From Escherichia coli (lineage in GTDB: Bacteria > Pseudomonadota > Gammaproteobacteria > Enterobacterales > Enterobacteriaceae), in the NCBI RefSeq assembly GCF_030013595.1, contig NZ_CP122768.1: a DNA stretch of 64,000 bases. The stretch is one strand, 5' to 3'. Below, piece by piece: positions 55,534-59,152 of this stretch (position 1 is its first letter; each line of letters starts with the position of its first letter). The notes below the pieces were generated by a model. That model saw only the letters and a program-made list of their open reading frames with translations. It ran no database searches and was not told the DNA's origin. The position numbers and the translations under genes were made by a program.

Positions 55534-55845
55534 TTAGGCGGCTGATGTTTCTTCTTTCAGGCTTTCGAGATATTTACGTGGGTCGTCGTAACATTGGCAT
55601 TCGCTGTACCAATCCACCCAGCGATCAGTAAGCCCCACCTCTGATAAATCTTCATCGGTAAGGCTCTCATCCCACATCTCAAGGCCGTTAGCATTGCAGT
55701 AATCAGGCTTGATGTTGTTGTCATACTGAAAGGCGTCATAATCAGCCAGTGCGTCCATCAGGCGAACACCCTCTTCAACACTTGCCACTTCTACAATGAA
55801 CGGCTTCATAGGTACTTGCGGGATATGCCAGACACGTAATTTCAT
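55534..55845 (-). CDS. hypothetical acidic protein (lambda ea10 position)
   Basis: 103-aa ORF, strongly acidic, Trp/Cys-containing. Confidence 0.5.
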   Translation of the reverse strand: MKLRVWHIPQVPMKPFIVEVASVEEGVRLMDALADYDAFQYDNNIKPDYCNANGLEMWDESLTDEDLSEVGLTDRWVDWYSECQCYDDPRKYLESLKEETSAA

Positions 55846-55989
55846 ATTTCCTCCGTCAAAAAAATGCCCTCACACTGGAGGGCAAAGAAGATTTCCAATA
55901 ATCAGAACAAGTCGGCTCCTGTTTAGTTACGAGCGACATTGCTCCGTGTATTCACTCGTTGGAATGAATACACAGTGCTTATTCGCAGC

Positions 55990-56316
55990 CTACATAATCA
56001 TTCCGGTTATTATTACCATTTCAATATCGCTATCTTTCATAATGATTGGAGTTGAGTTATCAACTTTACTTTTACTCCATTTTCCTGCATCAGTTTTTAC
56101 CGCTCCACAATAAGAAAGCCAATCATCATCACAATGTTCTGGATCACTAATTCTGACAAGAACACGTGATAGTGCTTTTTCGATACTTTCATCACAATTA
56201 GCATTTGTGTAATTGCCGTGAGACAATTTCAAATCGTTAACTTCATCTTCATTGGCATCAAAAATATAGATTTCAGTCGACTCTGGAACATTTTCATAAA
56301 CCATTAAAACTTTCAT
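55990..56316 (-). CDS. hypothetical protein, AT-rich moron-like gene
   Basis: ORF 55990-56397; likely start ATG 56316 (MKVLMVYENVPE...) after GGGG RBS; low GC relative to flanks. Confidence 0.45.
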   Translation of the reverse strand: MKVLMVYENVPESTEIYIFDANEDEVNDLKLSHGNYTNANCDESIEKALSRVLVRISDPEHCDDDWLSYCGAVKTDAGKWSKSKVDNSTPIIMKDSDIEMVIITGMIM

Positions 56317-56356
56317 TTTTACCCCATATTGTTTATGCCAAAAATAAAGGCCACCA

Positions 56357-56557
56357 TTAGGCAGCCTTGTTGTTCTGTTTACCAAGTTCTCTGGCAATCA
56401 TTGCCGTCGTTCGTATTGCCCATTTATCGACATATTTCCCATCTTCCATTACAGGAAACATTTCTTCAGGCTTAACCATGCATTCCGATTGCAGCTTGCA
56501 TCCATTGCATCGTTTGAATTGTCCACACCATTGATTTGTATCAATAGTCGTAGTCAT
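56357..56557 (-). CDS. ral: Ral-like small Cys-rich protein (restriction alleviation), tentative
   Basis: 66-aa ORF with CGQFKRCNGC motif at the ral position and size; identity from recall. Confidence 0.5.
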   Translation of the reverse strand: MTTTIDTNQWCGQFKRCNGCKLQSECMVKPEEMFPVMEDGKYVDKWAIRTTAMIARELGKQNNKAA

Positions 56558-57177: not shown

Positions 57178-57397
57178 TACAATTTGTTCTAAAATGGGGT
57201 GATTTTTTATAACGCTTTGTATTTAATAGTGTTGTTTTTTAGCGTGGGTGTATCGCCTCGGCGATGTAAGGAGAGATCAGAATTGCGTGGTTTAGTGAGT
57301 TGTATCTATTTATTTTTCAATAAATACATTTGGTTATGTGTCTTTAGGTGGGGGCGTGAGGCAAAGAAAACCCGGCTCGGTGGCCGGGTTGATGGGA

Positions 57398-58255
57398 TTA
57401 TCGTTTATTTCTTTGATGTTTCTTTGCTGACTCAGCTTGAGTGTTTCCATACCTGCGTTTACCGCTATTGTTTTTTCCTCTAGGCTTGCCTTTTTTTCGA
57501 TCTTCCCACCAGTCAGGTGCCGGGTCTGGCTCAACATGTAAAGCATCGGCAAGTCCTGATATCAAGCTGTATGACTGAACTCCATCAATGTGCTCTGACA
57601 GTGATGGGGTAACATTCTGTCTTAGTGGATCAAGAATAAAATCAATACCTTTAATTCTGGCGTGTTTGGCGGCAGGCACAAAGTCTGAGTCCCCAGCAAC
57701 AAGGACAATTACATCAACAAGTTTTTCATAAGCTAAAGTCGTGATATCCATCCCTAGCTTGATATCAACTTGTTTTTGTTTGATGTCATAGTAAAAATCA
57801 TCATTTGTCAGTTCATCCCATTTTTTCGTTCCTTTCATCAGAGCATCAAGGGAGAATGTAGTTAGTTGCCATCGCTTATTATCAACAAGATTCCCTAATC
57901 TTAAGGCTGTTTTTCGAGTTTTTCTTAACTCTTCATGCAGCTCCGTTCTCAGAATATATGATTTTTCGAGTTTGAAATTCTTGCGACCAGGCGTCTTATT
58001 GCCAGGCTCAGGAAGTGGAAGGCGTGTTTGAATGTCGAGTGGTGGACAGTCATAGAAGTAAATTCTATAAAGCTCAAGCGGTTCCCTACGTTCTTGTGAT
58101 TGACGTTTTCCATTAAGATGGGAAAGAACCATTGACCATATTACTTTCATTATGCATTGCGCAGTCAGTTCATGCTCGGCGAAGTGTTTACGATGCGTAG
58201 CATGAACACGCTGCATGAAAAAACCCGCATCAATTAAAATTGCTGCTTTCTTCAT
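57398..58255 (-). CDS. NYN/LabA-like (PIN-fold) nuclease-domain protein with Lys/Arg-rich C-terminal tail; candidate prophage exclusion/defence protein in the rex position
   Basis: 285-aa ORF: N-terminal AILIDAGFF and central VLVAGDSDFVPAAKHARIKGIDF NYN-type motifs; basic tail; between cI and pL/N; AT-rich. Confidence 0.75.
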   Translation of the reverse strand: MKKAAILIDAGFFMQRVHATHRKHFAEHELTAQCIMKVIWSMVLSHLNGKRQSQERREPLELYRIYFYDCPPLDIQTRLPLPEPGNKTPGRKNFKLEKSYILRTELHEELRKTRKTALRLGNLVDNKRWQLTTFSLDALMKGTKKWDELTNDDFYYDIKQKQVDIKLGMDITTLAYEKLVDVIVLVAGDSDFVPAAKHARIKGIDFILDPLRQNVTPSLSEHIDGVQSYSLISGLADALHVEPDPAPDWWEDRKKGKPRGKNNSGKRRYGNTQAESAKKHQRNKR

Positions 58256-58382
58256 AAGAGTCCCAAAAAAATAGCCCAGAGCCGTTATGCAGATATTAAC
58301 AATTGTCTGCGAACGGGGCTGGGCTTGGTTTAATTAATCTATGCCAAGTTGACTGTGCCGTCAACATAAAACTTACTTCCTA

Positions 58383-59036
58383 TCACCCAAACGTCTCTTC
58401 AGGCCACTGACTAGCGATAACTTTCCCCACAACGGAACAACTCTCATTGCATGGGATCATTGGGTATTGTGGGTTTAGTGGCTGTAGAAACACCTGACCG
58501 CTATCCCTGATCAGTTTCTTGAAGGTAAACTCATCACCACCAAGTCTGGCTATACAGAAATCGCCTGGCTCAACAGCCTGCTCAGGGTCAACCAGAATTA
58601 ACATCCCGTCAGGAAAGCTGGGCTTGGATCCTGTTGGTGCGGTCATGGAATTACCTTCAACCTCAAGCCAGAATGCAGAGCCACTGGCTTTTTTGGTTGT
58701 GCTTACCAATCTCTCCGCATCGCCTTTGGTAAAGGTTCTGAGTTCTGGAGAGAACATCCCAGCCTGAACATGAGAAAATACAGGGTACTCATATTGTTTT
58801 TTAACTGGGGCCGATGAGTATTCGCCAACAGGTGAAAATGTCCCGTCGTGGTTGAATGATATGTTATCAATACCAAGGTATTTAAACACCACACCAATAT
58901 CACTAAGAGATGGATGACGAGATCCGCGCAACCAGTGTCCAATCCCACCCTGCGTCATACCTAGCTCTTCGGCTAACTTCTCTTGAGTTATGCCGAGCTC
59001 TTTCATTCTGGATCTAGCCAGTTCATACCATTTCAT
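58383..59036 (-). CDS. cI: cI-type prophage repressor (HTH plus S24 LexA-like peptidase domain)
   Basis: ORF 58383-59084; probable start ATG 59036 ([10 protein letters not shown]...) 7 nt after AAGGA; C-terminal GNSMTAP...KKL...PLNPQYPMI autocleavage domain. Confidence 0.85.
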
Positions 59037-59152
59037 TTTCATGTCCTTATTATTACGCTCTGTACTGGAACCATCAATGCACAATGTGTATTTTTGCTTG
59101 TATTTGGAAAGTACATATTGTATTTTTTATTCGAGGTTACTATGGAGGGCAT

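Follow-up and report, generated by a model that had tools for sequence, protein, structure and literature searches.

What does a lambdoid prophage carry between its repressor gene cI and the promoter pL, and does that cargo act as a lone gene or as part of a larger unit? In lambda this slot holds rexAB as exclusion cargo; other cargo of the kind includes Stk of 933W, Nun of HK022 and BstA, which lies next to repressors. In a window of Escherichia coli DNA (the whole 64-kb stretch that was analyzed) the initial annotation had placed a NYN-domain gene in the rexAB-equivalent slot and had read it as a bare single gene.

A NYN-domain gene in a predicted lambda-type immunity region

The open reading frame (ORF) proved to be real and encodes the 285-aa protein quoted in the initial annotation. 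The slot assignment also holds: the flanking repressor and N-like antiterminator were identified by phrog_4 and phrog_271 and the pL-like promoter by a promoter scan (Table 1), and these neighbors confirm the predicted lambda-type immunity region. The repressor is labeled a LexA-family regulator in phage 2B8; Cro-like and CII-like genes diverge from it and are followed by O-like and P-like replication genes. An identical arrangement is found in phage 2B8 (NC_049952, gp46) and phage E212. The terminator 3′ of the NYN stop codon belongs to the phage backbone, being common to phage 1717 as judged from the boundary of BLASTN homology, and occupies the position of lambda t_imm. The moron-like composition ascribed to the gene was borne out, with a GC content of 40.8% for the ORF versus 46.7% for cI, 47.1% for N and 47.9% for the window.

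Compared with RexAB, the likeness lies in the genomic slot, the co-orientation with cI, the terminator before pL and a slot content that varies at the same immunity. The differences are that there is no RexA/RexB homology (no PADLOC match), that one ORF takes the place of two genes, and that the NYN gene has its own promoter and leader terminator, as against simple pRM co-transcription, and is also found in other slots. Two other small genes of the region were recorded in passing: within 55534-56397 of the window, in the pL operon, a 103-aa gene matches phrog_1510 ('superinfection exclusion'), and just 3′ of ral lies a 108-135-aa gene (34-36% GC; phrog_4658, unknown function); neither has a PADLOC match.

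Table 1. Predicted features of the NYN cassette and its surroundings (window coordinates, except for the last row)
Feature	Position	Strand	Basis	Details
cI-type repressor	58383..59042	-	phrog_4 at 2.2e-60	HTH + S24 peptidase
Exchangeable cassette	57395..58384	-	BLASTN vs phage 1717	990 bp; promoter + leader RNA + NYN ORF
Sigma-70-like promoter	58336..58364	-	consensus scan	-35 TTGACG 58364-58359, 17-nt spacer, -10 TAGATT 58341-58336
Leader RNA hairpin	58273..58325	-	MFE fold + RNAalifold	53 nt, three helices
Helix P1	58325-58319/58279-58273	-		
Helix P2	58316-58312/58286-58282	-		
Helix P3	58310-58306/58293-58289	-		
Apical loop	58305-58294	-		12 nt
U7 run	58265..58271	-		intrinsic-terminator tail; ends 10 nt before ATG at 58255
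NYN-domain ORF	57398..58255	-		285 aa; core residues 1-69 + 154-~245, insert ~70-153, tail 256-285
Intrinsic terminator 3′ of NYN stop codon	57369..57390	-	terminator scan	
pL-like promoter	57177-57149	-	promoter scan	
nutL-like boxA	57102-57094	-	assigned by eye, known lambda consensus	
nutL-like boxB hairpin	57070-57057	-	assigned by eye, known lambda consensus	
N-like antiterminator	56958-56686	-	phrog_271 at 6e-26	followed by ral
Internal loop of the general leader form (A4/A7 example)	L156 3909-3914 and 3946-3950			

The NYN protein has an intact acidic cluster and a conserved insert

The protein displays the flavodoxin-like α/β fold of NYN/PIN nucleases with intact acidic residues, as the initial annotation had proposed. 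The Pfam NYN profile (PF01936) matches residues 158-205 only, with an i-E-value of 1.1e-8, and TIGR00288 matches at 5.5e-7, under its curated cutoff. PHROG 5783 matches over the full length under the label 'unknown function', and the RefSeq name is 'NYN domain-containing protein'. Across 124 distinct relatives from many phyla, seven aspartates (D9, D69, D164, D170, D189, D191 and D224) are invariant, as are R64, Y68, K115, R119, W129, Q160 and H222; the N-terminal DxxN motif lacks its usual asparagine, the stretch reading D9-A-G-F. Between core strands 2 and 3 lies a conserved insert of about 85 aa (residues ~70-153), which holds an invariant RKxALRxG stretch and W129. We regard the fold and the active-site residues as established at the level of sequence comparison, and the invariance of these residues makes a metal-dependent, catalytically competent nuclease the natural reading, the activity itself being a prediction.

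The Lys/Arg-rich tail that the initial annotation had singled out is present (residues 256-285), disordered and clade-specific, the median length being 274 aa in the enteric/Pseudomonas clade versus 220-241 aa elsewhere. This restriction to a clade makes it unlikely to be essential, and we rejected it as a defining feature. Another candidate complication arose in O121 strains, where RefSeq splits the ORF of NZ_CP027435.1 (L002 4001-4858) into a 117-aa 'NYN domain-containing protein' and a 'PIN domain-containing' pseudogene; the 285-aa ORF is in fact uninterrupted in that genome and departs from the window by a single synonymous change, and a disrupted gene was accordingly rejected.

The view that this is no characterized system is upheld by the searches. 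PADLOC 2.0 gave no significant full-length match to any system model, and the PADLOC comparison proposed in the initial annotation returned only motif-level matches, to HEC-09 (2e-4, 46 residues) and NYN (1.4e-3, 43 residues). Nothing beyond the generic NYN label was obtained from PADLOC, NCBIfam and PHROGs, no relative was found among solved structures by profile or single-sequence search, and no published study of the family was found in the literature on NYN together with prophages, defense, ncRNA or type III toxin-antitoxin (TA) systems (the 'NYN' of gene-birth papers denotes NYN codons and was set aside). HEC-09, an Hma-embedded NYN/MARF1-like candidate with an N-terminal HTH-like domain, is the only NYN defense candidate tested in the literature and gave no protection; it shares with the window protein an NYN/MARF1-like domain proposed to act as a defense RNase, the match being motif-level only, and is a different protein. 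From other NYN proteins (MARF1, Regnase-1/MCPIP1, LabA/VPA0982, YacP/Rae1) the present one differs in its ~85-aa insert, in having D9-A-G-F for DxxN, and in being encoded by a cassette of mobile elements that has a leader RNA of its own.

A conserved promoter and terminator-like leader RNA precede the gene

Upstream of the ORF we detected a sigma-70-like promoter with a predicted transcription start at ~58329, followed within a few bases by a three-helix hairpin (58325-58273) and, directly after it, by A+U7 (58272-58265). This conserved promoter and structured leader belong to the unit, so the gene is not the bare single gene of the initial annotation. A promoter-like element (at least 8 of 12 matches) is found in 41 of the 52 distinct proteobacterial-type leaders, ending a median of 11 nt before P1, versus 8/35 for control windows placed 70 nt further upstream. 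The Bacteroidetes -7 motif TAnnTTTG lies 12-21 nt before the hairpin in all 19 Bacteroidales leaders (at 12-13 nt in 18 of them); the predicted promoter position is thus conserved in two promoter dialects. We further observed that a palindrome, GTTGAC-N6-GTCAAC (58365-58348, minus strand), includes the -35 hexamer of the cassette promoter and recurs with a variable spacer in many but not all homologous cassettes (L162, L108, L015, L078, L076); an unknown dimeric regulator, or the NYN protein itself, might use it as an operator.

We aligned 22 distinct leaders of enteric, Pasteurellaceae-like, Pseudomonas, Acinetobacter and Halomonas origin (alignment A2), from which RNAalifold predicts the hairpin independently. 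In this alignment 94.9% of the cells are paired and 14 of the 17 pairs are changed on both sides (57 cells); none of 500 shuffles reaches the observed values, and slid controls pair in 28-45%. Among the non-Watson-Crick cells are 15 of the G·U type and none of the A·C type, and a covariance model of this leader type (R2) matches the window at 58331..58261 with 80.1 bits in the sense direction versus 26.1 antisense, with no other match in the 64 kb. Because of the G·U to A·C imbalance and the asymmetry of the sense and antisense scores, the leader structure is predicted to form in RNA transcribed in the gene's own direction, a sense-strand structure that we count as established by comparative analysis. 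Across types, almost every homologous leader has a U-run after its hairpin. The strand-specific G·U pairs, the U-run and the score asymmetry also led us to reject a DNA cruciform or attC-like recombination site. A search of the Rfam 15 families, including abiF (RF03085) and ToxI, yielded no match at E≤1 at the leader in the window, nor in seven diverse loci.

These features bear on how the gene would be expressed. The space before the ATG is too short for a second promoter, so the ORF should be expressible by read-through only, be it from its own promoter or from pRM/pRE, and is predicted to be reachable only through the hairpin and U7 terminator. The earlier remark that the gene is co-oriented with cI is correct as to orientation; simple rexAB-like co-transcription with cI does not stand, given the hairpin and U7 10 nt before the ATG. 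Since the hairpin ends in a U-run, most transcripts should stop there, giving an RNA of ~65 nt. The promoter-proximal, terminator-like nature of the hairpin is a firm outcome of the comparison. The main alternative to the function proposed below, and only somewhat less likely than it, is that the hairpin acts in cis only, as an attenuator of an autoregulated nuclease and possibly as a cleavage or binding site of NYN in its own mRNA; Regnase-1, a PIN-like RNase, acts on stem-loops in its own transcript. The nuclease would then be constitutively active, substrate-specific, kept low and non-toxic, and defense, if any, would consist in direct degradation of foreign RNA or DNA. Access to the ORF through the terminator alone, the conserved spacing of promoter, hairpin and ATG, and the lack of repeats or of a processing array would all fit such an attenuator. 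Conditional control by it is harder to envisage: the transcript starts a few bases before the hairpin, so almost nothing lies upstream of it from which an alternative antiterminator could form. Termination alone, moreover, does not need invariant loop nucleotides such as the UA of the apical loop in A2, or the conserved internal loop described below.

A more widespread leader form with a conserved internal loop

A second, more widespread form of the leader was recovered from Myxococcota, Acidobacteria, Alpha/Beta/Gammaproteobacteria, Elusimicrobia, Thermaceae and Rhodothermales. Its two helices, P1 and P2, measure 8 bp each and are separated by an internal loop; a variable loop and a U-run complete it. 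In alignment A4 the 5′ strand of the internal loop has an invariant GUA and the 3′ strand an invariant GA. We offer as a lead only the resemblance of this GUA/GA loop to the sarcin-ricin/loop-E (bulged-G) motif, which binds protein. In the window, the enteric type has an extra helix where the loop would be. The invariant loop nucleotides (UA in A2, GUA/GA in A4) go beyond structure alone.

From 20 sequences of the general form we built a covariance model, R1. In A7, an alignment of the general and Bacteroidales types fitted to the model, 85.5% of the cells are paired and 14 of the 16 pairs are compensatory (120 cells). R1 recovers the Marinomonas and Bacteroidales types and scores only 13-15 bits on the enteric/Pseudomonas type; a single covariance model for all leader types was rejected for this reason, and two models were used.

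The leader is tied to the gene

Most of our statistics rest on loci collected through the protein, and among these a promoter and a structured RNA precede the ORF on the same strand in nearly all. When 628 kb was searched on both strands with R1, all 33 matches with E<0.01 lay directly upstream of a NYN start on the sense strand, among them Marinomonas/Proteus-type and Bacteroidales-type leaders absent from the seed. Of 41 such matches in another set of 478 kb, which overlaps the first, 39 were so placed, the two exceptions being weak (19.7 bits at L081 5885-5926 and 18.3 bits at L089 1337-1368). A pattern built on the RNA only retrieved 54 stretches from IMG/VR; a NYN ORF follows in 51, one of them with an internal deletion, and the remaining three are orphans representing two distinct loci. 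At the level of these sequences, we take the leader's obligatory position between promoter and ORF as established. The 115-nt leader occurs in 274 of the 5426 complete E. coli genomes, which is also the number holding any part of the ORF. In the CP-933H remnant of O157:H7 EDL933 (L178 3501-4005, by tRNA-Thr/proA) the leader is 100% identical, the ORF is cut to 129 codons and it abuts a truncated integrase; this remnant explains most of the ~200 E. coli genomes with a partial ORF match only.

The orphan hairpins, which persist without the gene, speak against an exclusively cis-acting attenuator. Both loci have an enteric-type hairpin with U-run; as to their settings, one (L211 3550-3720) has a tRNA gene directly after it, and the other (L184 2790-2860, with L192 identical) follows another hairpin at the end of the upstream gene. 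The converse case is seen in Rhodanobacteraceae (Rhodanobacter, Dyella and relatives; L117-L154, L167), where syntenic chromosomal orthologs of ~220 aa, with a LysR-type gene among their neighbors, keep all catalytic residues and show a clade-specific K161T; the leader motif is absent from them, and only a GC-rich hairpin without a U-run was found. This looks like a domesticated, vertically inherited form, and it indicates that the RNA is tied to the mobile form of the gene and is not universally required. That motif-less orthologs keep their catalytic residues is what would be expected if the RNA were regulatory rather than a neutralizing partner, as the cis-acting attenuator would have it.

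Architectural parallels and a proposed function

In its architecture the cassette appears to match most closely the type III TA modules and, among these, AbiF/RCd22. Classical type III modules (ToxIN, CptIN, TenpIN) occur on plasmids and prophages, act in abortive infection and consist of a promoter, an antitoxic RNA, a terminator and an endoribonuclease gene; their antitoxins are tandem repeats that the toxin cuts into pseudoknot units, and their toxins have the ToxN/AbiQ fold. The NYN cassette likewise has a predicted RNA upstream of the nuclease gene, on the same strand and behind the same promoter, and, judged by its sequence, a Rho-independent terminator (hairpin plus U7) between the two. 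It differs in that its leader is without tandem repeats, and in that its protein has the NYN fold instead of that of ToxN/AbiQ/CptN/TenpN, with no match to a PADLOC type III toxin. Neither tandem nor direct repeats were found in 57300-58500, which contains a single hairpin, and a tandem-repeat antitoxin was rejected on that ground. As both the repeat-array antitoxin and the ToxN-type fold are absent, the cassette may be said to work like a classical type III module, not to be a member of that class.

Repeats are not universal in type III-like antitoxins, as AbiF/RCd22 and AvcID illustrate. In the phi027 prophage of C. difficile, the Abi_2 HEPN RNase AbiF and the 'abiF' RNA motif (RF03085) form a type III-like TA system, in which a SigA promoter drives a conserved hairpin ncRNA that closes with a Rho-independent terminator, read-through of which yields the toxic RNase; the RCd22 RNA both attenuates transcription and neutralizes the AbiF protein. 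The NYN cassette, known from sequence only, shares the prophage location and the order promoter, hairpin RNA, terminator and nuclease gene. Unlike AbiF, which has a HEPN fold, its protein is NYN/PIN-like, its leader does not match RF03085, and a single three-helix hairpin that doubles as the terminator stands in place of two abiF hairpins and a separate terminator. That RCd22 is itself a transcriptional attenuator lends some further weight to the cis-only alternative.

We tentatively propose, at a little short of an even chance, that the cassette is an RNA-plus-nuclease module like the type III TA systems or AbiF/RCd22, serving abortive infection or competition between mobile elements. A constitutive promoter would start transcription a few bases before the ~53-nt three-helix hairpin with its U-run; most transcripts would stop at the U-run, yielding a structured RNA of ~65 nt, and the NYN endonuclease would be made only from the read-through transcripts, its ATG lying 10 nt past the U-run. 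The abundant leader RNA would limit NYN synthesis and also bind and restrain the protein, probably via the conserved basic insert. An incoming phage or plasmid that shuts off host transcription, or otherwise upsets the balance of RNA and protein, would set NYN free; free NYN would cleave RNA, and the invader would be blocked or the cell killed, so that the lysogen population and the prophage are protected. The nuclease activity, toxicity, RNA-protein binding, trigger and anti-phage phenotype are what we infer in this scheme; the abortive-infection or exclusion role that the initial annotation had thought plausible is likewise suggested by the context of the gene.

Several points count against this TA-like proposal. 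Compensatory changes would be expected of an ordinary leader terminator as well; NYN is no known type III toxin fold, and there are no repeats for the toxin to process; the Rhodanobacteraceae orthologs do without the RNA, and HEC-09 gave no protection; and the ORF is truncated in the decayed prophage of ~200 O157:H7 genomes.

Mobile cargo in many phyla

The phage and plasmid contexts indicate that promoter, leader and ORF move together. In BLASTN comparison with Stx2 phage 1717, homology ends at 58385, the cI stop codon, and restarts at 57394, so that the cassette amounts to the ORF and the 129 nt upstream that hold the sigma-70-like promoter and the long hairpin; phage 1717 has a different, 173-aa gene in the cI-pL slot. 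More generally, the slot holds other genes in phages whose cI and N are 96-97% identical. In the prophage of O121 strain 2014C-3599 a DUF3024 gene (L002 4987-5376) stands between a different cI and the NYN cassette; such DUF3024 genes in O121 prophages match the PADLOC candidate PDC-S43. On either side of this gene lies a copy of the final ~18 nt of cI (GAAGARACGTTTGGGTGA; L002), which suggests that cargo is exchanged by recombination at the conserved cI 3′ end.

The surroundings are as varied elsewhere. Of 79 viral loci, 31 have the NYN gene directly downstream of an S24 repressor, in several immunity types. It is further seen between the Q antiterminator and the holin (Pfam-labeled in Edwardsiella, and in ~20 viral loci by reading of the neighbors). 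Other copies lie in prophages or islands at the end nearest the integrase; Acinetobacter Rep3 plasmids and a Pseudomonas plasmid/ICE have the gene next to HigBA or other TA genes, and in Proteus it is found downstream of glmS. Residence in mobile-element accessory slots we consider established from these contexts. Neighbors differ in every motif-bearing locus and no conserved protein partner was found among them; such a partner was rejected for that reason. The varied locations, together with the other genes in the slot of phages with near-identical cI and N, mark the NYN gene as predicted exchangeable cargo.

These observations make a core function in lambda-like development, such as the processing of pL or pRM transcripts, very improbable: in its favor is only the location in the immunity region, co-oriented with cI, and set against it are the phages with near-identical cI and N that lack the cassette, the occurrence of the same cassette in unrelated slots and on plasmids, and the damaged copies of the ORF, cut short in O157:H7 remnants and with an internal deletion in one contig. 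We also judge it improbable, to a lesser degree, that the gene is not anti-phage at all and encodes an RNA-processing or lysogenic-conversion factor, or a counter-defense or addiction factor benefiting the mobile element, for instance one that modulates transcripts of the host or the element or destroys a host defense RNA. Such a role would agree with its presence on plasmids, an ICE-like element and chromosomal islands, with the syntenic chromosomal copy kept in Rhodanobacteraceae, with the lack of a significant PADLOC system match and with the negative result for HEC-09. Its patchy occurrence among near-identical phages fits conflict systems better, however, and it sits in exclusion or defense cargo slots, with PDC-S43 beside the cassette in O121 prophages; as for counter-defense, the orientation and position of the gene would give lysogen-type or autonomous rather than early lytic expression.

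The family as a whole is large. We retrieved 7035 clusters of NYN relatives from the protein database, at least 557 contigs from IMG/VR and at least 591 loci from the GTDB species set; full-length structural relatives in AFDB50, all unnamed, come from Proteobacteria, Firmicutes, Actinobacteria, Bacteroidota, Spirochaetes, Planctomycetes and Deinococcus-Thermus, and the leader accompanies the gene from Enterobacterales to Bacteroidales and Acidobacteria. It is possible, and we hold it with some doubt, that the cassettes make up an undescribed, phylum-spanning RNA-protein TA or abortive-infection family, in which a single RNA antitoxin is at once the terminator and a NYN toxin has an RNA-binding insert, borne as mobile cargo by lambdoid prophages, plasmids and islands; the same reading would have the antitoxin RNA carry the sarcin-ricin-like GUA/GA loop in most lineages.

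The NYN domain and the generic protein name were already known; the libraries and literature covered contain no description of the family, the insert, the dedicated leader RNA or the cassette as a whole, and PADLOC and Rfam lack this family, whose members number in the thousands across many phyla. If the pairing of RNA and nuclease is functional, the few RNA-antitoxin or RNA-regulated defense modules would gain NYN as a new toxin fold, along with an RNA partner that is new and very compact. A function would then be assigned to the common 'NYN domain-containing protein' of prophages and plasmids in E. coli, Salmonella, Klebsiella and Pseudomonas, and to the CP-933H remnant of O157:H7. The pairing would also be the second independent case, AbiF being the first, in which one leader hairpin serves as attenuator and as partner of the protein, and would bear on the origin of RNA-guided or RNA-controlled nucleases.

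One further locus is worth recording. In Pseudomonas yamanorum (L102 6509-6708), at a distance of 2.5 kb from the NYN cassette, we obtained strong Rfam matches to C4 antisense RNA and to the a1/b1 targets of this RNA, known from immunity of the P1/P7 type, which suggests that this locus too is a prophage immunity region.
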